A stretch of DNA of 62,118 nt, counting the filler. It is 8 parts of 8 records of this genome, joined end to end, with 100 filler letters (N's around TTAATTAATTAA, not from the genome) between each part and the next. Parts side by side here need not be neighbours in the genome. Positions count along the whole stretch, not along the records: positions 6,801 to 12,668 come from SRR31147125_65978; 7 more parts are not named here. One strand, 5' to 3'. The notes beneath the pieces are model-generated. The model ran no database searches. It saw nothing but the letters and a program-made list of their open reading frames with translations, and was not told the DNA's origin. This document shows positions 3,615 to 18,437 of this stretch, piece after piece. The first letter of the stretch is position 1; each line of letters begins with the position of its first letter. A program made the translations under genes and the position numbers.

Positions 3615-4445
3615 TTAATGGTTATTTGATTTTCGATAATCACTCGGAGACATGCCAGTGCGAGATTTAAATTGACGGCTAAAATAGCTGTAATCGTTTA
3701 CGCCGACTGTCTCAGCGATTGATGCTATAGATAGATTTGTGGTTGAAATAAGCTCTTTCGCTTTTTGGATACGTTTGGATGTAATTTCTGAATTGATGGT
3801 AATGCCTGCAAGGCGGGCAGTTTCGCAAAGCTTGGTTTTGCTCATTCCCAATGTATGGGCGATGTCTTTTAGGGTTGATTTTTGTTTGTAGAATTTGTCT
3901 ATGTAGTCAATTATGCGTTCGGCATCTGTCAGCTCGCTTTTTTGCACATAGTTGTGCAGCCATATGTAGGATGCACACGCTGCAAGTACATCGGTGTAGG
4001 CTTTTAGCTCGGCATCGCTTAGACAGGTCAGCTTATAAAAAGCGGTCTTTAAATCATCCTTGCTTTCGTGCCATGAGCAAAGGTGTTTGGTTACATTCCA
4101 TTGCTTGTTGATGGATGTATTATCCAGTACCTGACCGAACATCAAGTATGCAAGAATGGTTTTGCCATTGGTTATAGGGATTGCGGTTTCAATTAATCCG
4201 CAATGGCATCTGTATGTGTATGGGGCATTTAGCTTTCTGGATTTTTCCAATGCCTTAGCGTTGCACTTGATGCACATTTGATAGCCTGATGCCGTGTTTT
4301 GTATAAGCTTGCAGAAATCGCATTGGGGATGGCCTGTGGTTACGTCTTCAAAATCCACGCTTTTTAGTGTGAATTTCTGCCCCGTAATTATATATAGATT
4401 ATTTAATAGCTTTGTAAGCTTGTCAAAATCGTAGACGTTGTGCAT
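3615..4445 (-). CDS. AraC-family regulator with N-terminal PocR sensory domain
   Basis: CDFC..C..C..YRCHCGLIETAIPI..GQV (PocR) and C-terminal IAETVGVNDYSYFSRQFKSRTGMSP HTH. Confidence 0.9.
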   Translation of the reverse strand: MHNVYDFDKLTKLLNNLYIITGQKFTLKSVDFEDVTTGHPQCDFCKLIQNTASGYQMCIKCNAKALEKSRKLNAPYTYRCHCGLIETAIPITNGKTILAYLMFGQVLDNTSINKQWNVTKHLCSWHESKDDLKTAFYKLTCLSDAELKAYTDVLAACASYIWLHNYVQKSELTDAERIIDYIDKFYKQKSTLKDIAHTLGMSKTKLCETARLAGITINSEITSKRIQKAKELISTTNLSIASIAETVGVNDYSYFSRQFKSRTGMSPSDYRKSNNH

Positions 4446-4524
4446 AGTGTTCTCGCTTTCTTTTCTGCTTTTGTATGTTGTTTATATGATTATACCACAC
4501 AAATAGTACAAAGGTTCAAAATGC

Positions 4525-4553
4525 GGACAATAATGCTATAGAAATGGACAATA
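4525..4553 (+). promoter_or_regulatory. Probable AraC-type operator (direct repeat)
   Basis: GGACAATA at 4525 and 4546, 21-bp period, in the divergent region between the AraC gene and the DUF5107 gene. Confidence 0.5.
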
Positions 4554-4661
4554 GTCCATTGTTTAAAGTCAAAAATGCTACTACTATAAACTTAGGCTAT
4601 ATTTATGTGTATAGTGATAAACAATTAAACCCGCAAGTATAGGGTAGAAAGAGGATCAAAT

Positions 4662-6650
4662 ATGAGTGAAGTAAGGTTTGAAAAAATGCGAATTCCCGGT
4701 GGACGTTTAGGCAGCGCGGGTGAGTATCCGATTATGTACAAGCAGCAAATGATGGAAAAAGAAAGTATTTTAGATGAATCTGAAGGGTTATTTATTAACT
4801 ATGGTAATATAGCACATATGTTGCCATATACTAGCCTTGATATGTATGACCATTCAGAAGAAATGAGAGATTTTGAAGTAGCTGTACTTGAAAACGATTA
4901 TTTAAAAGCAACATTTGTACCATCTTTAGGAGGACGGATGTGGTCATTGTTTGATAAAAAGAACAAACAGGATTTAGTAGTAAACAATCCGATTTTTCGT
5001 CCATGTAACTTGTCTACTAGGAATGCATGGTTTTCTGGTGGAGTAGAGTGGAACTGTGGCGTGCGTGGACACTCAGCGTTATCATGCGACAAAGTTTTTG
5101 CAGCGAAATATAATATGAAAGATGGTACACCAGTACTAAGAATGTATGCATTTGAACGTATGCGCGCTGTTACATTCCAAATGGATTTCTTTCTAAAAGA
5201 TGATAGCCCATTTTTGTATGCACGTATGAGACTGGTTAATGGATCTAAAAAAGTAACTCCAATTTATTGGTGGAGCACAATAGCTGTTGAAATGCTTGAT
5301 GGTGCTCGTGTGGTAGTACCTGCTGATGAGGCATATGTAAATCAAGGGAATGACCCGGTATATAAAATCTCTACACCGATGGTAGATGGTTTGGATTTAT
5401 CATATCCTACCAATCATACAATATCTGTGGATCATTTCTATAAGATTCCTGAGGAATCAAGGAAGTATGAGGCCTATATAGACAAAAAAGGAAAAGGGCT
5501 TATGCATGCTTCAACACGTAGGTTAAAAGGACGAAAAATGTTTGTATGGGGTTCGTCTGTTGGTGGCGAGAACTGGCAAAAATTCCTAACTAATAAAGAA
5601 GGAGAGAAGCAGCCATATTTAGAAATTCAAGCAGGTTTGGCAGCAACACAAAATGAAAGCTTACCAATGCCTCCAAATACTGCTTGGGAATGGTTGGAAG
5701 CATATGGTGCTGTTAATTTTGATCCAAAAGAAATCCATGGCGAATGGAAACAAAGTAAAAAAAATGTAGAAGCATGGTTGGATAAGAAATTACCTGAAGC
5801 AGAAATGGATGAATTGCTTGCATCTACACACGAAGCAGCAGTTACACCTGCTAAGGCAACATTTAATGGATATAGTTGGGGAGAGCTTGATAATATATTA
5901 AAAGTAAGCACAGGAAGTAAGCCAGCAGCAGAATATTTAGATTTTGGTTCAATGGATGAGGAACAAAAATTATGGTTGCGCTTTTTGAAAAATGGATACT
6001 TGGATGAACCGGATCCAAAAGATAAGCCTGTTTCGTTTATGGTGCAGGATGAATGGTTTGAAAAGCTTAAAGAATCTGTTAAAGATGTAGATAAAAATAA
6101 CTGGTATGCATGGTATCACTTAGCTATTTGTTATTTTGATAAAGACTTATTTGAACAGTCAAGAAGTGCATTTGAAAAATCTTTAGCATTACAACCAAGT
6201 ACATGGGGATATCATGGCATAGCTAACGTTGATAGAGTACTAGGAAATGATAAAGGAAGTGCATTAAAGATGGCAAAGGCACTATCTATGAATCCGGATT
6301 ATCTGCCTCTTATTAAGGAAACTATGCGTTTTGCTTATGAAACACAAGAATATGAACTAATGTTAAATGTGTATGATGGATTAAGCGATGAAAACAAAAA
6401 ATCAGATGGTGTACAAAAGTATCGTGCTTTTGCTCTTGCTCATACTGGGCAATATCAACAGGCAAAAGATATACTTACTAAAGACGGAGGCTTGCTAATG
6501 GATGATTTAAGAGAAGGTGACGACTCTATGCCTAACGAATATATCTTTATAGAGCAGCAATTAGGTAAGGCGAATGGAAAAACTATATTAGCTGAAGATG
6601 TGAAAGTACCTAGAAAAATAGATTTCCGCATGTTCCATGAAAGTAAATAG
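4662..6650 (+). CDS. DUF5107-domain protein with C-terminal TPRs
   Basis: VLENDYLKATFVPSLGGRMWSL and RNAWFSGGVEWN motifs; TPR-like AWYHLAICYF..A..AFEKSLAL. Confidence 0.8.
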   Translation: MSEVRFEKMRIPGGRLGSAGEYPIMYKQQMMEKESILDESEGLFINYGNIAHMLPYTSLDMYDHSEEMRDFEVAVLENDYLKATFVPSLGGRMWSLFDKKNKQDLVVNNPIFRPCNLSTRNAWFSGGVEWNCGVRGHSALSCDKVFAAKYNMKDGTPVLRMYAFERMRAVTFQMDFFLKDDSPFLYARMRLVNGSKKVTPIYWWSTIAVEMLDGARVVVPADEAYVNQGNDPVYKISTPMVDGLDLSYPTNHTISVDHFYKIPEESRKYEAYIDKKGKGLMHASTRRLKGRKMFVWGSSVGGENWQKFLTNKEGEKQPYLEIQAGLAATQNESLPMPPNTAWEWLEAYGAVNFDPKEIHGEWKQSKKNVEAWLDKKLPEAEMDELLASTHEAAVTPAKATFNGYSWGELDNILKVSTGSKPAAEYLDFGSMDEEQKLWLRFLKNGYLDEPDPKDKPVSFMVQDEWFEKLKESVKDVDKNNWYAWYHLAICYFDKDLFEQSRSAFEKSLALQPSTWGYHGIANVDRVLGNDKGSALKMAKALSMNPDYLPLIKETMRFAYETQEYELMLNVYDGLSDENKKSDGVQKYRAFALAHTGQYQQAKDILTKDGGLLMDDLREGDDSMPNEYIFIEQQLGKANGKTILAEDVKVPRKIDFRMFHESK

Positions 6651-6700
6651 TGTCGACTAAACTTTACTAATAGGGGCTTGTTGAGTAATAATATTATTCA

Positions 6701-6800
6701 NNNNNNNNNNNNNNNNNNNNNNNNNNNNNNNNNNNNNNNNNNNNTTAATTAATTAANNNNNNNNNNNNNNNNNNNNNNNNNNNNNNNNNNNNNNNNNNNN
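6701..6800. other. Artificial contig linker (also 12669-12768, 18853-18952, 30307-30406, 45019-45118, 50952-51051, 56213-56312)
   Basis: Identical N44-TTAATTAATTAA-N44 spacer with stops in all frames; composition changes abruptly at most linkers. Confidence 0.99.
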
Positions 6801-6801
6801 C

Positions 6802-7992
6802 CGCAACATCCCCATTTTGGGGACCACGACCGACGGCAACGCATCGGACAAGCGTTTGAACAACGAACTGCTGACCAATATCTCAAAATACATGGCCAAG
6901 CACGGGCTTCAGCCAGGCGCTTATGTCTATGTGGCCGATTCAGCCTTTGTCACCGAGGACAATCTTGCCAAAAGCGATGGCCATACCTGGTTTCTGACCC
7001 GTCTGCCGGCCACCTACAAGGAATGCGGCCGAATCGTTCGTGAAGCCGTGCTCAAGGATGACTGGATTGATATTGGTCCCCTGGCCGAGGAACACGACCA
7101 TCCCAATCGACCGGTTGCCCGCTATCGGGTCTATGACGGTACCGTGGCGCTTTATGAAAAAACCTACCGGGCAATTGTCGTGCATTCCAGTGCGCATGAC
7201 AAAAGGCGTCATAAACGCATCGACCGCATGTTGAAACAGGATCGTAACCAACTCGACGCCGACTGCAAGGAAATCGCGAAGACGGTGTACTATTGCCAGG
7301 CAGATGCAAAGGCCGCCGCGGAAAAACTGATCCACAAATCCGGCTCCAGTTATCATCACCTCCACGTTGATGTTGAAGAAGTGCCCAAATACGGTCGCGG
7401 CCGGCCTGCTTCAGGTAAATCCAGAGAAGCCTTGCGCTATGAATATCGTTTGGTGACCACCATTGCCGAAGCCTCGGACAAGGTCGGTTCCCTCAGAGAA
7501 GAAGCCGGCTGTTTTGTGCTGTTGACCAACCTTTTGGATCAGCAAGCGGATTGGCCCGCCGAAGCACTGCTGTCACTGTACAAGAGCCAGATCGGCATAG
7601 AGAAGAACTTCAGCTTTCTGAAGGATCCGGCCATCGTGAACAGCATTTTTCTGAAGAAGGCCAGGCGGATCGAAGTTCTGGGCCTGATTCTGTTGATATC
7701 CCTGTTGATCTGGCGGTTGATGGAACGATCCATGCGCCAGTATGTTGAAGCCAACGACTGCGAACTGCCCGGCTGGTTGCGCCGGAAAACCCGCAAGCCA
7801 ACAGCCTTCATGATGACAACCAAGTTTACTTCCGTCATGGTCATCACGATCGGCAACCACAGGCAGTTGGCAAAGCCCTTGAAAGCGTTCCAGCTGGAAT
7901 ATTTAAAGGCGCTGGGCGTCACCCGTTTACCGTTCTCTAAAGGAACCAAAAAAATTAGTCAAACCGTTGTCGTTTAGGGTGCGGAATGTATG
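6802..7992 (+). mobile_element. IS1634-family insertion sequence, 5'-truncated transposase (ORF to 7977) with probable right end
   Basis: DGNASD, VADSA, FVLLTN and YKSQIGIEKNFSFLK DDE motifs; GGTGCGGAATGT-like end just after the ORF. Confidence 0.88.
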
Positions 7993-8548
7993 TTACATTT
8001 TTTTCACCGGTCGAAATAATCGTCGGCGAACACTTCTCCGGGATAAACAAGCGTTTGTCGATCAGGGCGTAGCCGTGCTCGGAAACATAGCCTGCGAAAA
8101 CGCCTACCTGGCAATTATCCACTTTGCCGATGGTCCCGCAGTATTGTCTGGCAACCCCGATCGAGTCATTGCCCTTTTTAGCGTAGCCGCTCTAATCAAA
8201 AAGCATGGCGCCGTCTGGACTGCCAAGATCGTCGTTAACACAACTACGATACTTGGTAGCCATTTTATCCTCTGCCCATTGAGCATCACTGACAAAGCGT
8301 TGCATCGGTCTTGGGGTCCCTTCTTTCACGGCCATGGCGATGGGTTCGATGGACTTCCGCTCAAGTGGACTGAATTGTCCGGACATGTAATTAAAAAAGT
8401 GATCTCTGGATTCACTACGATGGAAACAATCGGCAAACTGCTCGTGAAATCCTTTTAATTCATTATTAAAATCTTTGATATTCCCTTTGCCAAGGTCAAA
8501 CTTTGGAACCGGATAAAGGTATTCGTCGCATCGGATGACGGGTAACAT
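7993..8548 (-). pseudogene. IS701-family transposase remnant
   Basis: ERKSIEPIA..MQRFV..D*SGYAKKGNDSIGVARQYCGTIGKVDNCQVGVF; in-frame TAG at 8192-8194; truncated at the IS1634 end. Confidence 0.88.
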
Positions 8549-8740
8549 GGCCTGCCTCTTTTTTAAGGGTTGTTTCGTAGTTTGGCAGACCAAGAATTAG
8601 ATTTCAATATGGAATCATATTATGGTGTCGTTGTAGGGCTATATCAAACTGGAGTACCACAATGCCTTCAATGAGGGTTTGATATATTCTTTTGGATTAC
8701 CAAATGGTGAAATGATTTAAATATTTTGAAAAAGCAAACA

Positions 8741-8773
8741 AAAAAAGCCCTCGCTTTCAAGCGAAGGCTTTTT
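8741..8773 (-). terminator. Intrinsic terminator downstream of the recombinase (possibly bidirectional)
   Basis: AAAAAAGCCCTCGC-tttcaa-GCGAAGGCTTTTT hairpin with A/T tracts on both sides. Confidence 0.75.
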
Positions 8774-8795
8774 ACTGCATCAAAACTTTTTCTTT

Positions 8796-9757
8796 TTATA
8801 TAGCGCCCAAATATTGACTTACCACATCGTCTCGATCCGGACCGTGACCCAACTCAGCTTTTATTATCTGCCTTGCATCCTGGTTCAGATTTTCCCAATT
8901 TTCGCCAGCTATTGTTATTGCATTTTTTCTGAATGCCATTTTTGAGTCAAACTTACACGGCGCCTTAAATCCGGTTATATCTTCGTAGCGATCCTGTGCA
9001 TAAGCATGTCGACATCCATGGCTCGATGCTCCGCAATCTTTCTTTGAGATTCCTTTGGCTCTCGTTATTCTATAATATTTCTGAATCCATTGTTTTTCGC
9101 TATGATCATTTGGAATTAAGTTGTTGATTCCTGATAGTGCTTTTGCATATTCTATCGCTGCTTTCCCGTTTTCGGTCAGTTCGTTTATTATCCGTTCCCT
9201 TCCACCTTTGGTTCCATGCTGAATGAATACCCTTCCACCTGTCATGACCGCCTGGTGGGCATTAAATTTACACGCTTCTTCGACCCTTAGTCCCAGATAA
9301 CGTTCCAATTGCAGCTGGGCAGCAGCCCTTTTGTCATCGCTGCTGTTGCTTTGCATCAATTCTGTCACCGCTTTTTGAAACACTTCCTCGGGCAATGATT
9401 TGTCACGATTATCCACAAACACACGATTGGGGATGCCAAATTGAGTATTGTCTGTTTTTATTCGATCGTTCCCATAAAGCCTGCACACAGCTCGAACACC
9501 GGATAAATATTCTTTAATCGTTGCTACCTTCAGATCATCTTCTTTCCATTTGTCGACCGCTTTTTGAATGTGAAGATTGGTTACATTATTCCATCTTTTT
9601 ACACCGTAACCCAGCGCTCGAATCGTATCCACAAATCTTCGGGCCTCTTTAATATGGTTGTGTCGGGTCTTGGTGGAACCGGATTTGCTTTTTTTATTCC
9701 CCGTATAGCTTGCATTACCAGCGTGTCCGTTCTCGTTGAGTTGCTCAGTCTGATCAC
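8796..9757 (-). CDS. Tyrosine recombinase of the Integrase_1-like subfamily; real start probably about 9748-9757 with a one-base frameshift near 9685
   Basis: Full catalytic set: GLRVEE (R), GTKGGRER (K), HGCRHAYAQ (HxxR), ELGH (H), VSQYL (Y). The upstream frame reads GSTKTRHNHIKEARRFVDT; RBS AGGGAGG at 9757-9763. Confidence 0.88.
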
Positions 9758-9774
9758 CTCCCTTTCTTGTAATC

Positions 9775-9931
9775 TTGTAGCGATCTATTAAAACGGTGGG
9801 TTCACCGGGTTAATAACCATTTTGGTTAATGCGATTTTACCCTGCATCGCCGTAGACGACGCCCCGGTAATGGGTAAAGGGTAAGGATAATCGCTTTATA
9901 TTTACGCTGATGTATTGATCAGCGGCTACAA
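9775..9931 (-). ncRNA. Candidate structured leader or ncRNA upstream of the recombinase (multibranch fold with a crossing helix)
   Basis: Helices 9775-9781/9925-9931, 9905-9911/9918-9924, 9831-9843/9878-9894, 9814-9819/9823-9828, 9848-9852/9857-9861; crossing helix 9802-9809/9863-9870. Confidence 0.5.
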
Positions 9932-9972
9932 AGAATGGGAATTCGGCAATTATGATCTTTTCCCTTTTGCCC

Positions 9973-10178
9973 TTGTCGTGTGCCGAAAAAAATAGCCGTC
10001 AGTCGCCAATTTGTTTTTTTTGGGCATGACAAACGGGAAACCATCGAGCGAAGGTATGGAGAGAACATTATTATTTCATATGGTAAGGCTTGTTGGCGTA
10101 TTCTTGGATTAATCAGGTTTGCCGACCGTCTGTTTTTTTTGGCAAGCCTCAAAAACAGACGGTCGGGCAGTTTGATCA
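9973..10178 (+). other. Two long hairpins plus a linker complementary to both loops (candidate ssDNA structure or antisense ncRNA)
   Basis: Hairpin 9973-10032; perfect 16-bp stem 10122-10137/10151-10166; G-T pairs favour the + strand. Confidence 0.5.
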
Positions 10179-10179
10179 G

Positions 10180-10533
10180 TTAACGTTGCTTGATTATGGT
10201 TTTGGATCGTTCCCAGTCACATTTGGCATGGCTGCCGGCAAGTCCTTTTTCAATGAGGTGAGGGCATATCAAAGCGACTTTCCTCGCGGCATCTTCCAAA
10301 AATCGGTCGAAACGGAAACGGAAGAAGTGTGCGGTCATTTCTTCAGCCCATGCAAGGCGTGTGTCGTCGAACGATGATATACATTCACGCAAGCTAAAAG
10401 CCGCATCTTCAGACCATAATGAGAGAATCAGTTTCGCCAGTCCATTTGCCGACCCCGCACCTTCATGTCGATTGATCCATTCCACCACATGCGCGTAAGG
10501 ATTTTTAAAATCTTTTCCAGTATTGTCGGTCAT
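10180..10533 (-). CDS. Small hypothetical protein of the mobile element
   Basis: 117 aa, RBS AGGAG, co-oriented directly after the RadC gene; no family confidently recognised. Confidence 0.7.
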   Translation of the reverse strand: MTDNTGKDFKNPYAHVVEWINRHEGAGSANGLAKLILSLWSEDAAFSLRECISSFDDTRLAWAEEMTAHFFRFRFDRFLEDAARKVALICPHLIEKGLAGSHAKCDWERSKTIIKQR

Positions 10534-10560
10534 GATTTCTCCTTACTTCCTTTTTTTTGT

Positions 10561-11079
10561 TTACATCTGTGAGATTTGATCCAATACGGAACACACTTTG
10601 CGTTTGGTATGTTCAATTATTTTTTCGTCTGCGAAAGACAGGTAGGTATCAGAATCCATGTCCACGATAATGTGATCCAGAATTTCCAGATCGAACAGAT
10701 GCGCAGACGCCATTATCATGCGGGTGATCATTTTATCTTCCATGGATGGCGAGGGATCTCCCGAAGGGTGATTGTGTCCGAGGATCAAGGATCTGCAGGG
10801 CATGTTTATTGCGGCCTTAACGACCTCCCGGGGCTGTACGATACTTCGGGTCAGGCTTCCAGTGGATACCAGGTTTGTGCCGATGGGTTTCAGCTTTGTA
10901 TTCAGCATTACCACTACGAAGTTTTCCCGATCTGTCTGACCGAGCTGGCGGATCATATTCTTGATTAATTGGGAACCAGAGAAACTATTGTGGATGGCCT
11001 GATCACTCAAGAAATGGATTTCTTGTTCTTTGACCATATGCAGCTTGTATGCATAAAAGTGATATTCTTTCATGTTCAC
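10561..11079 (-). CDS. RadC-like JAB/MPN-domain protein (short, mobile-element type)
   Basis: DRENFVVVMLNTK, VQPREV, HNHPSGDPSPSMED and ILDHIIV motifs; RBS GGGAGG at 11086-11091 places the start at 11079 (GTG) or 11073 (ATG). Confidence 0.92.
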   Translation of the reverse strand: MNMKEYHFYAYKLHMVKEQEIHFLSDQAIHNSFSGSQLIKNMIRQLGQTDRENFVVVMLNTKLKPIGTNLVSTGSLTRSIVQPREVVKAAINMPCRSLILGHNHPSGDPSPSMEDKMITRMIMASAHLFDLEILDHIIVDMDSDTYLSFADEKIIEHTKRKVCSVLDQISQM

Positions 11080-11085
11080 TATCAT

Positions 11086-11170
11086 CCTCCCTATTGTCAG
11101 GCGCAAAGGCTCCCACGGTCAGGGAGGACATCCCCATCGGGAAACCTTTACGGTTCCCCGATTAGGGGGA
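11086..11170 (-). promoter_or_regulatory. Structured leader, copy B, before the RadC-like gene
   Basis: Minus strand: TCCCCctaATCGGGGAACC-gtaaa-GGTTTCCCGATGGGGA tgtc CTCCC-tgaccgt-GGGAG CCTTTGCG, then AGGGAGG. Confidence 0.65.
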
Positions 11171-11225
11171 ATTTGTGTTTGATTTAACGCATGTTTTGAA
11201 GACCGTAATGCGTTGCCTGTTTACT

Positions 11226-12029
11226 TTATCTGCCTTTTAGTTTGGCCATTCCTTCGGTCAGGACCCACAAGGCTTTGTTGAGTTTGACATCCCTATCAAT
11301 GGATTTCACCGGGCGGGTTCTGACTCGACGAATATGGCCATTCGCATTTCGTTTGCTTCCATATATTCCTCCTTTCATGATATTTTCCTGGACCACATTA
11401 AATGTTGTCCACAGATCATTTCCTTGGTCGTCATAGCGTCGTTCTTCTAATAACTGTACTGGCAAAATCGGTGCCTTTTCGATATCTTCATAGACCAGTT
11501 TGTGCGCAGCTATGGCGAAAACGCCTTTTTCATTCGGGGAGAGGTCTACGGCCTTTAAATCATTGACTTGTACGGCGATATCTCCGGCACCTTCAGCAAT
11601 CTGGTAAGCCGAATCTAAAAAAGCGGTTATATCAAAACCGACATGTCTGTGTGAAAAATTGAACAGTTTCGAGGATACCATCAATCCATTTCCGCATATT
11701 TTACGCCAGATCGAGGCACAAAGCTGAAACGCACACCCACGATCATGGGAGTTGGTCATCACCAGATCGACGCGTTCCTGGTCGGTTGCAAGGGCACCCT
11801 GCATGAATCGGATGATGTGTTTCTGATAGCCGTTACGATCCTTTTTCCTTGTTCCGGATTGCTTCACATGCACGGGCTGCCACCCGGCGGACCTCAACAA
11901 ATCAACAGCCTCGATGGTCGGCACAAAGCTATATCGGTCCGAAACCGTATCATGTGGGTTTACCGCTCCTGCTGCCGGAGCCAATTCGACGATTTGATCA
12001 TTGGTCAGGGGAATGATTTGTGATTTCAT
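11226..12029 (-). CDS. DUF932 (DUF945) family protein
   Basis: SDRYSFVPT, YQKHIIRF, NSHD, R.IC.NGL, RRYDD..DLWTTFNVVQENIMKGG and LNKALW motifs; RBS GGGAGG before ATG at 12029. Confidence 0.9.
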   Translation of the reverse strand: MKSQIIPLTNDQIVELAPAAGAVNPHDTVSDRYSFVPTIEAVDLLRSAGWQPVHVKQSGTRKKDRNGYQKHIIRFMQGALATDQERVDLVMTNSHDRGCAFQLCASIWRKICGNGLMVSSKLFNFSHRHVGFDITAFLDSAYQIAEGAGDIAVQVNDLKAVDLSPNEKGVFAIAAHKLVYEDIEKAPILPVQLLEERRYDDQGNDLWTTFNVVQENIMKGGIYGSKRNANGHIRRVRTRPVKSIDRDVKLNKALWVLTEGMAKLKGR

Positions 12030-12035
12030 TGTCTG

Positions 12036-12127
12036 CCTCCCTTTGGAAAAAAGCCGCAACGGTTCCCTCCATAGGGAGAACACCACCGTATCGGGGAACC
12101 ATTGCGGTACCCCGGATTTGGGGTTGG
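12036..12127 (-). promoter_or_regulatory. Structured leader, copy A, before the DUF932 gene
   Basis: Minus strand: ATCCGGGGTACC-gcaat-GGTTCCCCGATACGGTGG tgtt CTCCCT-atgg-AGGGAA CCGTTGCGG, then AGGGAGG; aligns with copy B. Confidence 0.65.
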
Positions 12128-12141
12128 ATTTTAGAATTGTT

Positions 12142-12666
12142 CTATTTTTTTAATTGATTTATTGTCTCGACGGCGCGCCTGATCGTGCGCTGAAGGTAAG
12201 CAGCCTGGCGCCGTTGACCATTGTGATGTGCCCAATCTTTTCTTTCTTGCAACAGCCTGTCGGCAACGACTTCCGGATCCATTCCCCGACGCAACAATGA
12301 GAGGGCATAGGCAAAATCAGTCGCCGACTCATCCCCGCGATCGTAATCGGTACGCATGATGGGGTCGCCCGATAGACACTGCTTTATGGCTTTTTCCCTG
12401 ATTGGCCGTCGGTCAACTGTTTTTTCCGGAAGGTTTACCTTCGGTACTTGAGCCACTTTTTCCCAGTCCACCCAAATAAGGCGGGAGAGGGGAAATCGTC
12501 CCTTTTTACCATATTTCGATTTGCAATTTCGAAAGCCTGGACAACGGCCCCAACGCAAGTTCGGATCACAGGCTGGATCTGCGCGGAAAAACCTGATCCA
12601 ATATCGTTTCTCCGGGTTGCTGATGCTCCGTACTGCTTTGACCCATACCTGAAAATTGCCGGGGCT
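12142..12666 (-). CDS. RepB-type DNA primase (RSF1010 RepB'-like), 5'-truncated
   Basis: Frame is open to the contig edge: SPGNFQVWV..ADPA..WGRCPGFRNCKSKY, plus C-terminal helical bundle DESATDFAYA..YLQRT. Confidence 0.75.
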   Translation of the reverse strand, partial: SPGNFQVWVKAVRSISNPEKRYWIRFFRADPACDPNLRWGRCPGFRNCKSKYGKKGRFPLSRLIWVDWEKVAQVPKVNLPEKTVDRRPIREKAIKQCLSGDPIMRTDYDRGDESATDFAYALSLLRRGMDPEVVADRLLQERKDWAHHNGQRRQAAYLQRTIRRAVETINQLKK

Positions 12667-12768
12667 AANNNNNNNNNNNNNNNNNNNNNNNNNNNNNNNN
12701 NNNNNNNNNNNNTTAATTAATTAANNNNNNNNNNNNNNNNNNNNNNNNNNNNNNNNNNNNNNNNNNNN

Positions 12769-13983
12769 GACGCTGTCAAAAATTTAGTTTCTAACGGTAT
12801 TAGAACAGGTGGTGGCATCTATATTGACAGCGGTAATGCTACATTAAAAAATTGTATCATTAGTAATAACTCGATTTCTGGTAGTAGCAACGCTAAAGGT
12901 GGAGGGGTGGCTATGAGTGGAACATTAACGCTAAACAATTGTGCTATCCGAAATAATTCGATTTCAGGTTCAGTCGGTAGCTTTTCAAGTTCAAGTGCGC
13001 TTGGGGGAGGTGTTTATTTAGAAGGCTCATGCACACTGTATAATTGCATTATTGATGGGAACTCTGGAGAAACATCTGCAGGTAATTTTAGTACTGCAAT
13101 CTCAAGAGGTGGCGGCTTATTTGTGACTGGAGGGTATACATTAACAAATTGCATTGTTTCAAACAATTGGGTGTCTGCTTCTGGGGGCGATGAACGGATA
13201 AGGGAAGGAGGTGGCGTTTATTCGAATGTATCAGATACAACCTCAACCTTGATAAACTGCACTATTGCTTTTAATACAAACCAAGGGATCAGGAATAATG
13301 ACAACCAAATTAAAATTTTAAACTCCATTCTTTTCTATAATACTCCAGATGTGGAACAGCTTTCTGGATTAGTAGCGGCCGATTACAGTGACATTCAAAT
13401 ACCGGGGGTTCCTCCTGATTCTACTTATCCAGGGAAAGACAATATAAATGCCGATCCTTTTTTCAATACAAATGACATGCACTGTTTGCACATAGTAGAG
13501 GGATCGCCCTGCATAGACAAAGGCAGCCCAGAGGATATTTATAACGATGAGTGTTTTCCTGAAGCAACTGGAGATAGCCGTAAAAAACCCTCATTGGGGA
13601 CGGAAAGAAATGACATAGGTGCACATGGTGGCCCAATGGCCTGTAACTGGACGTTAGATGAATGTCTTATTGTTAGCGTCAGAGAGGAAACCATAAACCT
13701 TCCAAAATACTTTATTTTGCAACAAAACTATCCGAATCCATTTAATCCGAGAACAACTATTAGCTATCAGCTACCAAACCAAGCAAAAGTCGAATTAACA
13801 GTTTATAATTTCCTAGGGCAGAATATCAAAGAATTAGTAAATGAAATACAAGCCCCAGGAATACATCGGGTTCAGTGGGATGGGAAAGACAACAGCGGTC
13901 GGCTAGTGGCAAGTAGTGTTTATATTTATCAGATCAGAGCTAATGAAATCATAGAGTCCAAGAAGTTAGTACTAATTCAGTAA
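12769..13983 (+). CDS. Secreted beta-helix (pectin-lyase-like repeat) protein with C-terminal T9SS/FlgD-like sorting domain, 5'-truncated
   Basis: GGG[VL]Y..L.NC.I..N repeats; GSPCIDKG..DIGA.GG; LQQNYPNPFNPRTTISYQL..WDG C-terminus. Confidence 0.82.
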   Translation, partial: DAVKNLVSNGIRTGGGIYIDSGNATLKNCIISNNSISGSSNAKGGGVAMSGTLTLNNCAIRNNSISGSVGSFSSSSALGGGVYLEGSCTLYNCIIDGNSGETSAGNFSTAISRGGGLFVTGGYTLTNCIVSNNWVSASGGDERIREGGGVYSNVSDTTSTLINCTIAFNTNQGIRNNDNQIKILNSILFYNTPDVEQLSGLVAADYSDIQIPGVPPDSTYPGKDNINADPFFNTNDMHCLHIVEGSPCIDKGSPEDIYNDECFPEATGDSRKKPSLGTERNDIGAHGGPMACNWTLDECLIVSVREETINLPKYFILQQNYPNPFNPRTTISYQLPNQAKVELTVYNFLGQNIKELVNEIQAPGIHRVQWDGKDNSGRLVASSVYIYQIRANEIIESKKLVLIQ

Positions 13984-14138
13984 TATCGACTATAATTTAG
14001 CTCTTAATTACTGGCAAATAGATCTCTGACTTTAGCGTCGGTGAAGTGTGTATACCTAAATGGAATAAATAAGACTCTGGAGCAGGTGTAGATAAAATTA
14101 GTCTCTAAAATTTGTATTATAATAAAGAGAGACAACCA

Positions 14139-17100
14139 ATGAAAAGCATTTTTATAGGGATATTGTTTTTCTTGATAAATTCCATATCTTATTCCCAGCC
14201 AACAAACAATGCTCTTGAGTTCGATGGAGTGGATGACTATATTGAAATTTTAGCCAGTCCGCAAGATTTGGGTATCTCCGATATTTTTACTGCTACAATA
14301 TGGTTTAAGCAGGATTCGCAGTGGTCATTTCTTGTCATGAATAAATCTACAACACGAATCTACATTAATGGAGAGTTTGAATACGAAATTCCTACGGGTA
14401 TTACTTTCGATGAAACCAGCAATATTAGATTAGTCTATTTACCATATTTCGGCTACTTTAAAGGGTTAGCTGATGAGCTCCGTATATGGAACTTTGCACT
14501 CTCGGAACAACAGATAACAGAATATATGAATATTCCGCTTGAGGGTGATGAACAAGGCTTGGTTGGTTATTGGCCTTTTGATGAAAGTGATACAGACACT
14601 CTTTTTGATAGATCATCAAATAATAATATTGGATTATTAGGAGGTGGGAATCGAAAAAATCAACCAATACGAGTTCAATCGAATATTCCAATTTCCGAAT
14701 TCATCAAAATATTATATATAAAAGCACCAAGCGGTATACTTCAATTAGGTCAAAATATTATACCTCAAGTCGTAGTACAAAATATAAGTTGGCAAGAAGT
14801 AAGCTTTAAAACAAAATTTCTAATTCATCCATCTTATTCCGATAGTGCACAATCACCGAGCATATTGCCTGGGGATAGCATAACGGTGAGTTTGCCATCC
14901 TGGCAACCTCTAAAGGCTGCTGCTTACACGACAACAAGTAGTATTAGTTATGACGGTGTACATGTTATAGACCAAAAAACAGGAAGGGTGGTTGTTAGTG
15001 GTGAAATAGGACCCGAAATTCATGACATTAATCCTTCTATTGGCGTTAATGGAGGAGTTTTCACGATAAGTATAACTGGAAAAAAATTTAAAGAAGGCAT
15101 AACTGCCCGCCTTATCCAGCACGATGATTCTGAAATTATTGCCGATTCTGCTGCAATTCAGTTTATTAATTCTTCTGAGATAAAAGTAAATTTTAATTTG
15201 CAAGAAGCATTAGAAGGAGATTGCCATCTAAAAGTTTTAAATCCTGATGGGAACACTTTTACTTATTATGAAGGATTTAAAGTTATTGAATTTGAAGGTC
15301 AGCAGCTTACTTTTGGCAATTGGGAAGAATTTAAGGTAGCAAAAGGAACTTCTATAGATGTGGGAGTCAATGTCCCTTCAAATATTAATGATCTTTTTGT
15401 GTTAGTTAAAAAAACTACTCATATTGGTTATTCAGGAACCTGGGCAGGTAGTATCAAACTTTTTAAACAAGGACAAGAAGTTGCTTATCGAAATGGTAAT
15501 AGTGATTTTGAAATACACATTCAAAATCCAGAATCTGGTTGGTATACATTAGAAATTTATAGTAGTGATCCTGGGGATGGATTAATAAAAGTCTGTTCTT
15601 CAATAGATAATTTATCCCTTGGTCAATGGAAAATAGGAACTATACTTCGTCCTTATGGCTGGAATTGGATGCAATTGGATGTTCCTGCAAATCAGCAAAC
15701 CCTTTATTTGGAAACAGAGGGTTTTGGCCTCTGGAGTACACTAGACATATATTATGATTATATTGGTAACAACAATCAGCATTGGCAATTATCTAATATG
15801 GGGGCAGGTTATCATATTGAAGAAAAAATTGCAAATCCAATTGCTGGAAGATATTATCTTCGTTATATGGATTCGGCTGTTATGAAAGGAACATCCTCTC
15901 AGACTCGTGAATATATGATTATTGCGTCAAATACTGCACAAATTCCTACTCCCGAGACTACTTTAAAAGTAACTTCTATAATCCCAAAACAAGTAGCTAA
16001 CGATAGTTTAGTAACAATTTCAATTTATGGTAGTGGATTTAATGCTGATGATGTAGCGATACTTGTAGGAGAAAATAATTTAAAAATAATTTCATATAAA
16101 TGTTATTGTAACGATTCAAAAACAATACTTTATCCAACATTTGATTTATCTCATGCACCTACTGGGGAATGGGAACTTGTTATAAAAAAACAAAATGGAG
16201 ATAGTTTAAAAAGTGAGCAGACAATCGTAATTGAATCTGTTTCCAACATAGATCTTCAAGCTAATATTCAAGGTCGTAAATTATTCCGAATTGGTCGGCA
16301 ACAAAGTTATCAGATTAATTTGATAAATAATGGTAATACAAATGCGGAAGATGTAATATTTATAATCTTTTTTCCGAAGCTTGCCGAGGCAGTCCTTGAA
16401 ATGAAGGAATCGAAACATTCAATTGATTACATACCCGAACTCCAAAGCAATGAAAGTGAAACCGAATGGTATGCATTTACAATTTATCGAAAAATGTTAA
16501 TCCCCAAACAGAATCTAAGTGCAGAACTTCATCTTAGACTTATACAGAATATAAATAATTTTCAAATTTTAATTTATGCGATGCAAACCCCCGATGTTTT
16601 TTTAAAGACATTATCAAAACCTCTATATGTAAAAAATATGTTAAGTCAATACTACTCTGAAATTGAAATATGGTTTGGACCTATAAATTTAAATCCCCTA
16701 AAATTCTCTTTACCAGAGCATACAATTTTTAAATTTCCACAAGAGTCTGGACCTAATGTTTTATCCACTTTAAATTGCAAATCCTTTAATGGATGTCAAG
16801 CTGTAGTAAAAAAAAACTATAGCGATATAAAAAAAATACTTGAACAAGCTGGTTATAAAAAATGTAATGAATGTACGCAAAATGGAGGTAAATACTATTT
16901 TAAGTCGAAAAATGAACATGATATGATGTTTAAAAAGCTAACCGATTTATCTAACAGTGGTCTATATTTTAAGTATAGTAACGAAAAACCAAAAGGATTT
17001 ATAGATAATAATGGTAATTTTATACCGCAAGGTACAATAAATTGTAGAGGTTTATTTGAAGGAATAGCTGAATTTTTAAAAATCGGAACAAATGGAGAAG

Positions 17101-18437
17101 GAGTTATTCCTGATAATAAAGAGGATTATGGACTAATGGGAAGATTACCTAAATATTTTAACGCTGATTTACCATGGTATTGGGATTTTTTAAATTGGTA
17201 TGCAGATCCTTTGCCAAATGGTCGTTTACCAGATGCAAGCATAGATGGAACAGTTGTTGGATCCTCAACTCCAGAAGATAAATATGGACCCGAAGGTTAT
17301 GATCCTCCAGATACTACCAATATGAAACTTTGGAAATATATATTAAAAGATAAAGTATTGTCTTATAACATTGATTTCTGGAATAAAGAAGATGCCACTG
17401 CCCCAGCTCAAGAAGTATTCATTCTTGATACATTAGATAGAAATTTTGCAGATAATACATTTAGTTTTAATGAATTTGGGTTCTTAAAATGGAAAAGGCA
17501 ACTAAATGGAGGACATTACTTCAATGTAAAGGTTGATATGCGACCAGACGAAAACTTAATTGTGAATGTAGAAGGAAAATATGACCAGGACAATAGAGAA
17601 ATTAGTTGGATTTTCCGCTCACTTGATCCACAAACAGGGCAATTGCCAGAAGATCATATGGCTGGATTTTTACCGCAGATAGATTCAACAGGTTATCAAA
17701 TTGGCTGGGTAAGTTATTCTGTTAAACCAATATTTGAATTGACAACTGGTGCTAAAATCACAAACCAGGCATGGGTAAACTTTGACAGAGTCGGTCCATG
17801 GAATCCTGCACCAAAGGAAGGACCTTGGATTAATACAATTGATGCAGATCCTCCAATTAGCTATGTTAATTCGGCTACACAAGATGCCCAATCCGATAGT
17901 ATAATTGTAGAGATAACAGGGCAAGATATAGGTTCAGGTATCACTCATTATTCTTTGTATGTCTCTGAAAATAATAGTCCATATTCAGCGTGGATTTCCA
18001 ATACACAGGATTCAATAATGAAGTTTCAAGTAATCGATAACCATGTATATCGTCTCTACAGCATTGCAAAAGATGGAGCAAGAAATGTTGAAGTTGCACC
18101 TGATTCTTTTGATGTTATTATTACTGACGTAAAAGATAAACAGAATGGCTCCTTACCAAAAGTTTTTTCATTATATCAGAACTATCCAAATCCTTTTAAT
18201 CAAATTTCAACGATAAAATACGATTTGCCTAAAGCAGTTGAGGTAAAATTGGTTGTATACAATATCCTTGGTCAAAAAGTTCGGACACTAATTGATAAAA
18301 AACAGCTTGCTGGATATCACTTAGTAGACTGGAACGGACAAAATGACCTTGGTTTACCAGTAGCTTCAGGAATATATTTGTATAGGATCGAGACGAAAGA
18401 TTTTATAAAAACTAGAAAGATGTTATTGCTCAAATAA
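14139..18437 (+). CDS. Large secreted multidomain protein (LamG, Ig-like/IPT, DUF11-like, variable insert, FN3-like, C-terminal sorting domain)
   Basis: Signal peptide MKSIFIG; ALEFDGVDDY..DELRIWN..GLVGYWPFDE (LamG); TPEDKYGPEG; LYQNYPNPFN..KMLLLK. Confidence 0.82.
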   Translation: MKSIFIGILFFLINSISYSQPTNNALEFDGVDDYIEILASPQDLGISDIFTATIWFKQDSQWSFLVMNKSTTRIYINGEFEYEIPTGITFDETSNIRLVYLPYFGYFKGLADELRIWNFALSEQQITEYMNIPLEGDEQGLVGYWPFDESDTDTLFDRSSNNNIGLLGGGNRKNQPIRVQSNIPISEFIKILYIKAPSGILQLGQNIIPQVVVQNISWQEVSFKTKFLIHPSYSDSAQSPSILPGDSITVSLPSWQPLKAAAYTTTSSISYDGVHVIDQKTGRVVVSGEIGPEIHDINPSIGVNGGVFTISITGKKFKEGITARLIQHDDSEIIADSAAIQFINSSEIKVNFNLQEALEGDCHLKVLNPDGNTFTYYEGFKVIEFEGQQLTFGNWEEFKVAKGTSIDVGVNVPSNINDLFVLVKKTTHIGYSGTWAGSIKLFKQGQEVAYRNGNSDFEIHIQNPESGWYTLEIYSSDPGDGLIKVCSSIDNLSLGQWKIGTILRPYGWNWMQLDVPANQQTLYLETEGFGLWSTLDIYYDYIGNNNQHWQLSNMGAGYHIEEKIANPIAGRYYLRYMDSAVMKGTSSQTREYMIIASNTAQIPTPETTLKVTSIIPKQVANDSLVTISIYGSGFNADDVAILVGENNLKIISYKCYCNDSKTILYPTFDLSHAPTGEWELVIKKQNGDSLKSEQTIVIESVSNIDLQANIQGRKLFRIGRQQSYQINLINNGNTNAEDVIFIIFFPKLAEAVLEMKESKHSIDYIPELQSNESETEWYAFTIYRKMLIPKQNLSAELHLRLIQNINNFQILIYAMQTPDVFLKTLSKPLYVKNMLSQYYSEIEIWFGPINLNPLKFSLPEHTIFKFPQESGPNVLSTLNCKSFNGCQAVVKKNYSDIKKILEQAGYKKCNECTQNGGKYYFKSKNEHDMMFKKLTDLSNSGLYFKYSNEKPKGFIDNNGNFIPQGTINCRGLFEGIAEFLKIGTNGEGVIPDNKEDYGLMGRLPKYFNADLPWYWDFLNWYADPLPNGRLPDASIDGTVVGSSTPEDKYGPEGYDPPDTTNMKLWKYILKDKVLSYNIDFWNKEDATAPAQEVFILDTLDRNFADNTFSFNEFGFLKWKRQLNGGHYFNVKVDMRPDENLIVNVEGKYDQDNREISWIFRSLDPQTGQLPEDHMAGFLPQIDSTGYQIGWVSYSVKPIFELTTGAKITNQAWVNFDRVGPWNPAPKEGPWINTIDADPPISYVNSATQDAQSDSIIVEITGQDIGSGITHYSLYVSENNSPYSAWISNTQDSIMKFQVIDNHVYRLYSIAKDGARNVEVAPDSFDVIITDVKDKQNGSLPKVFSLYQNYPNPFNQISTIKYDLPKAVEVKLVVYNILGQKVRTLIDKKQLAGYHLVDWNGQNDLGLPVASGIYLYRIETKDFIKTRKMLLLK

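Follow-up and report, generated by a model that had tools for sequence, protein, structure and literature searches.

A conserved structured leader upstream of an Integrase_1-family tyrosine recombinase gene, with the Shine-Dalgarno sequence in its predicted outermost helix

Most of what is known about the control of tyrosine recombinases, enzymes that act on plasmids and genomic islands by moving, resolving and rearranging them, concerns DNA and protein. Leaders that sequester the Shine-Dalgarno (SD) sequence are represented by the fold-back inhibition of IS10/Tn10, the stem-loop in the 5' UTR of IS200 tnpA, and the fold-back of the hok mRNA; riboswitches with SD-occluding expression platforms combine a multi-helix core and conserved junction nucleotides with an outer helix that includes the SD. 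Other described elements related to integrases include the int-alpA RNA motif, an Rfam family associated with integrase genes, and the attC sites of integrons, each of which is one imperfect hairpin with extrahelical bases, recognized as DNA by the recombinase. In the IS110 family, a structured RNA (bridge RNA or seekRNA) is reported to lie directly 5' of the recombinase gene within a small mobile module (PMC11208160, PMC11208158).

In this work, we studied a fold at positions 9775-9931 of a window of 62,118 nucleotides (the whole stretch of DNA that was analysed, filler included), directly upstream of a tyrosine recombinase gene on the minus strand. Judged from comparison with homologous loci, this fold is the core of a larger structured leader (~200 nt) that is conserved before one tyrosine recombinase family. 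The leader resembles those of IS10/Tn10, IS200 and hok in being a cis mRNA structure whose upstream tract would pair with the ribosome-binding site (RBS), those leaders keeping a DNA-rearranging or toxic protein scarce, and a conserved upstream tract complementary to the SD of the next gene was indeed found; however, those systems are single stem-loops or simple long-range pairings, whereas the recombinase leader comprises ~200 nt, nine helices and conserved unpaired junctions, bears no sequence or Rfam relation to them, and precedes a tyrosine recombinase gene. With riboswitches it shares the conserved-junction core, the outer helix containing the SD and possible alternative pairings, that is, the structural features of the class, but the gene that follows encodes a recombinase instead of a metabolic or transport protein, no ligand is suggested, and no Rfam riboswitch match was obtained. 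It is likewise a conserved RNA motif beside integrase genes, as int-alpA is, yet no Rfam 15 model matched it: at gathering scores there were no matches across the whole window and, in six homologous loci, nothing other than one tRNA elsewhere, and the search of 9500-10300 at E<=10 returned microRNA-model noise only (E 0.15-9.5), none of it within 9775-9931. The leader differs from attC in having nine helices in a branched fold that includes the SD and is rich in G.U pairs on the mRNA-sense strand. Finally, it is similar to the bridge RNA or seekRNA of IS110 in its 5' position before a recombinase gene within a small mobile module; nevertheless, IS110 recombinases are DEDD/RuvC-like and the enzyme here is a tyrosine recombinase, which places it outside that family, no programmable loops matching DNA were seen when the inverted-repeat region was compared, and the bridge RNA is a discrete RNA, whereas the present fold reaches into the SD.

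The fold is strong in the window and stronger on the strand of the gene. Recombinase-sense (minus) RNA 9931-9775 displayed a minimum free energy (MFE) of -58.2 kcal/mol versus -32.1 +/- 3.6 for 200 dinucleotide shuffles (z -7.24), none of which equalled the native value, and the full leader reached -73.5 kcal/mol versus a mean of -50.0 in 30 shuffles. The plus strand of the same interval was weaker (-55.5 kcal/mol, z -4.27). All helices listed in the earlier note were recovered at its coordinates. On the minus strand, the fold comprises the closing stem P1 (9931-9925/9781-9775), P2 (CGCTGAT/ATCAGCG, 9924-9918/9911-9905), the distal part of the long stem P3 (9884-9878/9843-9837) with its sub-hairpins P3a (9874-9872/9865-9863) and P3b (9862-9855/9851-9844), the hairpin P4 (TAACCA/TGGTTA, 9828-9823/9819-9814) and the 3' hairpin P5 (9814-9810 and 9807-9803 with 9798-9794 and 9791-9787). 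Its placement of the fold about 12 nt before the RBS was also essentially right, as the gap to GGAGG (9761-9757) is 13 nt.

Homologues of the recombinase carry the same structure at the same place. Relatives were taken from species genomes (the best 80 of 579) and from metagenomes (14 loci), and the same architecture was found directly upstream of ~15 homologous Integrase_1-family genes with 45-90% amino acid identity, a sample of about 15 loci that represents fewer independent lineages. A covariance model built from 7 close sequences (R1, 31 pairs) yielded 16 matches at E<=10 over 35 sources, in which the window fold scored 177 bits; all 16 lie on the recombinase strand immediately upstream of the gene, and they include L008, L003, L006, L031, L013, L089, L092 and L011, despite a protein identity to the query of only 45-58%, with L088 and L090 in addition when filters were off. 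In the alignments of these matches, the same helices are formed from different letters, and one sub-hairpin is extended by 20-23 nt. Conversely, a model built from 7 distant sequences only (R2, 56 pairs) detected, in the correct place, both L003 (E 6e-11) and the close group (E 3e-5 to 3e-3), the E-values of both models being rough. With R2, no match at E<=1 was obtained in 55 other loci (342 kb; mostly from the gammaproteobacterial clade of the protein family, and a few others). A scan of 151 genomes at the order level with R1 matched two: one is the known locus L002/L214 of the cultured strain Desulfosarcina widdelii PP31, and the other match was weak (E 0.5), with no motif in the part of the locus that was inspected. 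D. widdelii gave a single match, and hence no sign there of an IS-like multicopy element. Among viral contigs, a degenerate two-motif pattern picked out 119 stretches; none of the 80 that were fetched matched R1 at E<=1, so the pattern matches were set aside as chance. At the DNA level, the non-coding core 9934-9822 shares 75-81% identity with L082, L002, L087 and L085, and the coding sequence 69-75%, a difference that speaks for selection acting on this core.

Compensatory changes accompany this conservation. In alignment A7, which was fitted to R1 (14 sequences, 31 pairs), 94.8% of cells were paired and 21 pairs had changed on both sides, with a covariation score of 0.589 versus 0.237 for shuffles (reached by 0/500) and 0.06-0.13 for slid partners. 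Alignment A12, fitted to R2 (13 sequences, 56 pairs in 9 helices), gave 92.3% of cells paired, 41 pairs changed on both sides, and a score of 0.510 versus 0.190 (0/500) and 0.08-0.11, respectively; both alignments are model-fitted and span the two groups, which biases them towards the structure. Using unfitted MAFFT alignments of single groups, the close group (A4; 7 sequences, 31 pairs) showed 96.8% pairing with 5 pairs changed on both sides and a score of 0.144 versus 0.112 (18/500 shuffles as high; slid partners 0.05-0.09), and the distant group (A9; 7 sequences, 56 pairs) showed 93.6% pairing with 13 such pairs and 0.230 versus 0.143 (0/500; 0.05-0.09). The weaker signal within groups implies that the covariation is mostly between the two of them. 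Regarding the strand, G.U pairs outnumber A.C oppositions on the sense strand by 41 to 3 in A7 and by 74 to 19 in A12, the latter count including some visibly misaligned rows of the close group. This excess is what would be expected of an RNA of the recombinase strand, and not of double-stranded protein-binding sites; it bears out the strand preferred in the earlier note.

The consensus (9 helices, 56 pairs) differs in several respects from the structure drawn for the window. Its predicted architecture is a compact core of P2, the long P3 with two sub-hairpins, and P5, closed by outer helices. The 7-bp closing stem UUGUAGC/GCUACAA, which had been taken as the base of the fold, turned out to be perfect in the window only: the six other close homologues keep 4-6 of the 7 pairs (as read from alignment A3), all with one A-C mismatch at the same position. 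Similarly, the TAACCA/TGGTTA hairpin is already missing in the nearest relatives, L001 and L081, and most homologues have at its site a U/C-rich single-stranded linker that follows a conserved junction. The crossing helix between 9870-9863 and 9809-9802, proposed as a pseudoknot or an alternative fold, is real in the window (-13.5 kcal/mol, reached by 0/200 shuffles) but is not conserved: it attains only -7.3 kcal/mol in L001 and L081, where 32 and 43 of 200 shuffles do as well, and it falls within the shuffle range in the other 10 homologues scored. A conserved pseudoknot was accordingly rejected.

A further departure concerns GCGAUU (9889-9894, minus strand), the 5' strand of the proximal P3 helix, which has two alternative partners. 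In the MFE structure of the window it pairs with AAUCGC (9836-9831), as had been drawn, whereas in the family consensus its partner is AUCGC at 9784-9780 in window coordinates, and in the distant group GCGAAUU is paired with an AAUUCGC that stands 3' of the 3' hairpin. In L003, GCUCUUU/AAAGAGC occupy the positions of GCGAU and its distal partner, and the proximal UCGC-type segment is unable to pair, so the partner supported by covariation is the distal one. Forcing the distal pairing in the window costs 4.5 kcal/mol in silico (-69.0 versus the MFE of -73.5). The proximal segment lies in the junction AAUCGCAUUAACC (9824-9836, minus strand; family consensus UCGCAUUNACC), which is single-stranded in the consensus and almost invariant in both groups; UCGCAUUNACC seemingly owes its strong conservation to a role as an unpaired junction or as an alternative partner. 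A second junction, UAAAUAUAAA (9895-9904, minus strand), has the family consensus AUAUA directly before GCGA in the alignments of both groups. Thus both unpaired junctions are retained in the two groups while the helices covary. Short GCGA/TCGC motifs occur four times in the region. Further upstream, an A-run followed by a CAAATTGGCGACTGAC block (9976-10021, minus strand) is kept in all subgroups, and this may be promoter-like or part of the RNA; no match to the sigma-70 consensus was found in 9976-10021, and a sigma-70 promoter scan from the inverted repeat described below to the fold gave no site. On visual inspection L006 seemed to have a sigma-54-like spacing, but L088 and L089 do not share it, and the idea was abandoned.

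The outermost consensus helix lies outside 9775-9931 and joins a pyrimidine tract just 5' of P2 to the SD itself, which fits the regulatory-leader reading of the earlier note. The SD region, AAGAAAGGGAGGUGAUC (9752-9768, minus strand), was read from the sequence and has GGAGG as its core. In the MFE structure of the full leader, it is engaged by anti-SD tracts at 9932-9957 of the same strand, GAUCAU (9957-9952) and UUCCCAUUCU (9941-9932): UUCCC (9941-9937) and GAUCAU pair with GGGAGGUGAUC (9762-9752). The SD region has a mean unpaired probability of 0.06-0.20. The strands of this helix vary among homologues, being ACCUCCU/GGGAGGU in L089, ACUUCCU/AGGAGGU in L006 and CCCUC/GAGGG in L003. In the distant group, the RNAalifold consensus has it as helix 1, it is 85.6% paired across the 13 sequences of A12, and the SD is paired in 6 of the 7 single-sequence MFE structures of the close group. 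Within the distant group (A9), helix 1 has zero pairs changed on both sides. The native SD unpaired probabilities were 0.001-0.21 versus shuffle means of 0.12-0.26, a comparison in which the G-rich SD is mostly paired in shuffles too, and at most 2 of 30 shuffles were as occluded as the native sequence for 3 of 12 leaders. In the RNAalifold consensus of the close group (7 sequences), the pyrimidine tract is paired not with the SD but with an upstream purine tract, AAGGGCAAAAGGGAA (9961-9975, minus strand), as it also is in the MFE structure of L081. According to these models, the purine tract is a possible alternative partner of the anti-SD tract (an anti-anti-SD), and such a built-in competitor would make the leader a switch.

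As for the gene, the protein encoded at 8796-9757 (minus strand) is identified as an Integrase_1/Phage_int_SAM_2 tyrosine recombinase by Pfam, homologues and alignments. It matches Integrase_1 (PF12835, 53.4 bits, cut-off 23), Phage_int_SAM_2 (PF12834, 39.3 bits, cut-off 22) and Phage_integrase only, and the invariant R, H-x-x-R and C-terminal Y are present in an alignment of 14 proteins. Of 876 candidates, 141 proved to be homologues at E<=0.001, most of them 306-317 aa long. The family is common on plasmids, with homologues in 230 plasmid records, many of them small, and no functional study of it was found in the literature searched (titles, abstracts and some passages). The window copy is frameshifted: aligned with 13 homologues, its N-terminus is in one frame (9757-9599) and the remainder in another (from about 9692), and DNA alignment revealed a run of A7 at 9689-9695 (minus strand) opposite A8 in L001, the closest homologue that is intact; the loss of this one base shifts the reading frame. 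The break may mean that the gene is a pseudogene or that the tract is prone to slippage, or it may be a sequencing error in a homopolymer. Where the homologues have their start ATG, the window, L001 and L081 have CTG (9748-9746 in the window), the next ATG of the window being at 9715-9713.

The conserved module is delimited on both sides. Homology to other loci (BLAST of window 4000-14000) extends from the base of an inverted repeat (~10181-10163) to ~8793-8736, past a terminator-like hairpin after the recombinase gene (8742-8773, minus strand), and the flanks differ among loci, with the exception of L001, whose synteny reaches farther in the upstream direction, across RadC, DUF932 and a RepB-primase fragment. 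A shared block bounded by repeat and terminator, with differing flanks, points to a travelling unit composed of the inverted repeat, a ~360-nt non-coding leader and the recombinase gene. In L083, a ParA-type gene follows the recombinase gene; its similarity to L082 is limited to the part downstream of 9847 in window coordinates, a breakpoint within the fold, which is a single case.

The inverted repeat at the upstream edge is perfect (CCGACCGTCTGTTTTT ... AAAAACAGACGGTCGG, 10122-10166, no strand assigned), and its core, CCGTCWGTTT/AAACWGACGG, occurs in every delta-type subgroup, including L004 and L007, which have an unrelated leader. In the repeat, T/A changes compensate each other, bases of the stem covary and the loop differs in length; the window has a single copy, as does each of the eight loci in which an exact match was found. 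Perfect repeats of an analogous kind stand 250-750 nt upstream of homologues from other clades, with arms centred on CGTCACT/AGTGACG in gammaproteobacteria and 16-nt arms containing GTCACT on an Agrobacterium plasmid. No U-run follows the stem in either direction, so the repeat is not a canonical terminator. We infer that the best candidate for a DNA site of the enzyme is this repeat and not the fold. A 23-bp palindromic att site is reported for IntA of Rhizobium etli (PMC4928290), and that sequence was absent from all 219 loci searched.

Long leaders are not confined to the clade of the window gene. In 14 gammaproteobacterial loci the upstream region is different, and RNAalifold predicted for it 45 pairs, 18 of them with compensatory changes; in this clade, a perfect SD-like AGGAGGTGAT precedes the start codon by about 230 nt, the stretch upstream of the protein match that copies in one genome have in common measures about 475-850 nt, and the two loci examined showed no conserved ORF. 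With its own structured leader in this second clade, the protein family looks as if long structured leaders were one of its traits, the folds being clade-specific.

Several explanations other than SD occlusion may be considered for these observations. That the window simply holds several short inverted repeats which fold by chance is refuted: it could draw on the plus strand, which also beats its shuffles, meaning that palindromic content by itself adds stability, but no shuffle matched the minus strand, homologues with as little as 45% protein identity have the structure in the same place, R1 and R2 detect each other's groups, and compensatory changes occur. A reading of the region as DNA, in which its inverted repeats would be double-stranded or folded single-stranded sites (att or res) for the recombinase or an accessory protein and co-evolution of half-sites with the protein would account for the apparent covariation, is highly unlikely. 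Recombination sites often adjoin the recombinase gene, palindromic half-sites would likewise change on both sides, and both the breakpoint between L083 and L082 at 9847 and the four GCGA/TCGC motifs would suit such sites; nonetheless, double-stranded sites would lack the asymmetry of 41 G.U to 3 A.C on the sense strand, nested helices of many sizes are kept together with variable loops and the 20-23 nt insertions, the SD is used in the outermost helix, the breakpoint is one case, and a far better candidate stands 190 nt upstream, namely the perfect inverted repeat with its core conserved in every subgroup. The element is very probably a functional sense-strand RNA of some kind. Such an RNA might, by analogy with the bridge RNAs, which it recalls in being encoded immediately 5' of a recombinase gene, act in trans as a cofactor, scaffold or guide with which the recombinase finds or synapses its DNA sites. 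Nine helices with conserved unpaired junctions are far beyond what SD occlusion needs, a second clade of the protein family has a different long covarying leader, and the family is functionally uncharacterised in the literature searched. Still, we consider a trans-acting partner very unlikely, and the more speculative proposal of the earlier note, a recombinase-associated RNA cofactor, found no support. The enzyme is a tyrosine recombinase of ordinary size with core-binding and catalytic domains only, and no RNA-guided tyrosine recombinase was found in the titles, abstracts and some passages of the literature searched. No discrete RNA is evident, because the SD lies within the outer helix and there is no conserved terminator, the hairpin with a U-run at 9807-9794 not being conserved. 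The variable parts of the leader do not follow the T/A variants of the inverted repeat, P3a being almost identical in L008 (T-type repeat) and L006 (A-type), and complementarity of the leader to the candidate site was at chance: in a coarse test with the inverted repeat as the only candidate site covered, no more than 1 of 100 shuffles equalled the native leader-repeat match in just 1 of 20 comparisons.

Less remote, albeit unlikely, is a functional leader whose main role is not to hide the SD, e.g., a ligand-sensing riboswitch, a standby platform for ribosomes, or an element that affects RNA stability or processing, with the SD pairing as an incidental feature. The compact multi-helix core with conserved unpaired junction nucleotides is aptamer-like, GCGAU and the pyrimidine tract have two alternative partners each, most homologues have a U/C-rich single-stranded linker after the conserved junction, and SD occlusion was not significant against shuffles for most leaders. 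Against it, no metabolic gene is linked that would hint at a ligand, and SD pairing was found independently in both groups; by sequence alone, these roles are indistinguishable from one another. Taking both sides into account, we favour, with a probability of about 0.6, a new cis-acting leader that keeps translation of the recombinase low or conditional by holding the SD in its closing helix.

The favoured cis-acting leader would work as follows. It would be co-transcribed with the gene as the structured 5' part of the recombinase mRNA, some 200 nt long and formed on the sense strand, its position by the start codon being fixed among the homologues. The outer helices that close the core would use the SD as their 3' strand and the pyrimidine tract upstream of P2 as their 5' strand, so that in the closed form the RBS would be hidden; the recombinase would thus be low, or would be made only once the leader opened. 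Candidate triggers for such opening include the upstream purine tract competing during transcription, a protein, a small RNA or a ligand. With regard to transcripts, one metatranscriptome run (0.04 of sampled words) contained only contigs of relatives, mostly less than 95% alike; these cover the hairpin, 9870-10020 and the 3' end of the gene, in a form from which strand, start, end and level are unreadable.

A broader conjecture, which we hold to be quite improbable, is that Integrase_1-family recombinases are RNA-dependent or RNA-gated modules consisting of an inverted-repeat site, a clade-specific structured RNA and the recombinase, in which the RNA would either bind the enzyme, as cofactor or synapsis scaffold, or sense a cellular signal and couple rearrangement to it; the different covarying leaders of the two clades, of 200-300 nt or more, are compatible with this. 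Were the RNA to bind the enzyme, a tyrosine recombinase would for the first time have an RNA partner. As a large, covarying RNA that is absent from Rfam and joined to the RBS of a widespread and uncharacterised recombinase family, the leader represents a new RNA family, and it offers a testable model for how a mobile module may silence its recombinase until needed. Moreover, the presence of structured leaders in two clades suggests that control of integrases at the RNA level is under-described.

The perfect inverted repeat at window positions 10122-10166, which marks the upstream boundary of the recombinase module, has a core that is conserved in sequence across the window and the homologous loci L001-L008 and L082-L089. 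Analogous repeats are also present in other clades of the recombinase family, and the inverted repeat is likely to be the DNA site of the recombinase. In one subgroup of loci, 3-4 directly repeated copies of a motif resembling GGCGGGATGCCGGAC were spotted by eye immediately upstream of the inverted repeat (L006, 2400-2540; L008, 2310-2450; L088, 680-830; L089, 400-560), and these may represent iterons or accessory binding sites.

The gammaproteobacterial loci L014-L080, a type found in several copies per genome, possess a different leader, also covarying, some 330 nt ahead of the start codon; its perfect SD-like AGGAGGTGAT precedes the recombinase ATG by approximately 230 nt, and the SD directly at this ATG is weak. 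Comparison of the relatives L082 and L083 revealed that they are identical from the 3' half of the structured leader core (the fold at 9775-9931, minus strand) onwards, with a break at about position 500 of L083 (window equivalent 9847), upstream of which L083 is AT-rich and unrelated to L082; in L083, a ParA-type gene comes after the recombinase gene.

Regarding the window recombinase gene (8796-9757, minus strand), a CTG occupies positions 9746-9748, where homologues have a start ATG; this CTG comes 8 nt past a GGAGG and is shared by L001, the closest intact homologue, and by L081. In close homologues, the start chosen by the gene callers was the following ATG or a GTG further upstream. Further, the window gene displays a frameshift at an A7 run (9689-9695, minus strand), where L001 harbors A8 and remains in frame. 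In the upstream frame this run reads A_AAA_AAA, a classic slippery heptamer. The frameshift may correspond to a pseudogene, a sequencing error or slippage.

As for the surrounding genes, the window and L001 have in common a set comprising a RadC-like JAB protein, a DUF932 protein and a RepB-primase fragment (10561-12558, minus strand), a combination that is typically found in the leading regions of plasmids or ICEs. Synteny with L001 is otherwise kept, except for a 117-aa ORF between RadC and the inverted repeat (10180-10533, minus strand), for which the family search gave no match and which is missing in L001 (114 nt there vs 389). On the other side, an N-terminally truncated IS1634-family transposase (6817-7977, plus strand; NF033559, profile positions 184-481 of 483) has a homologue beyond the recombinase gene in the related locus L085, in the opposite relative orientation.

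Another part of the window, SRR31147125_66095, encodes a 358-aa and a 1441-aa protein (12907-18437, plus strand). Por_Secre_tail was above the Pfam cut-off in the 1441-aa protein; in the 358-aa protein FlgD_ig was the only such match, T9SS sorting-domain matches being sub-threshold. These domain matches hint at an FCB-type host, whereas the recombinase module has its nearest relatives in Desulfobacterota.
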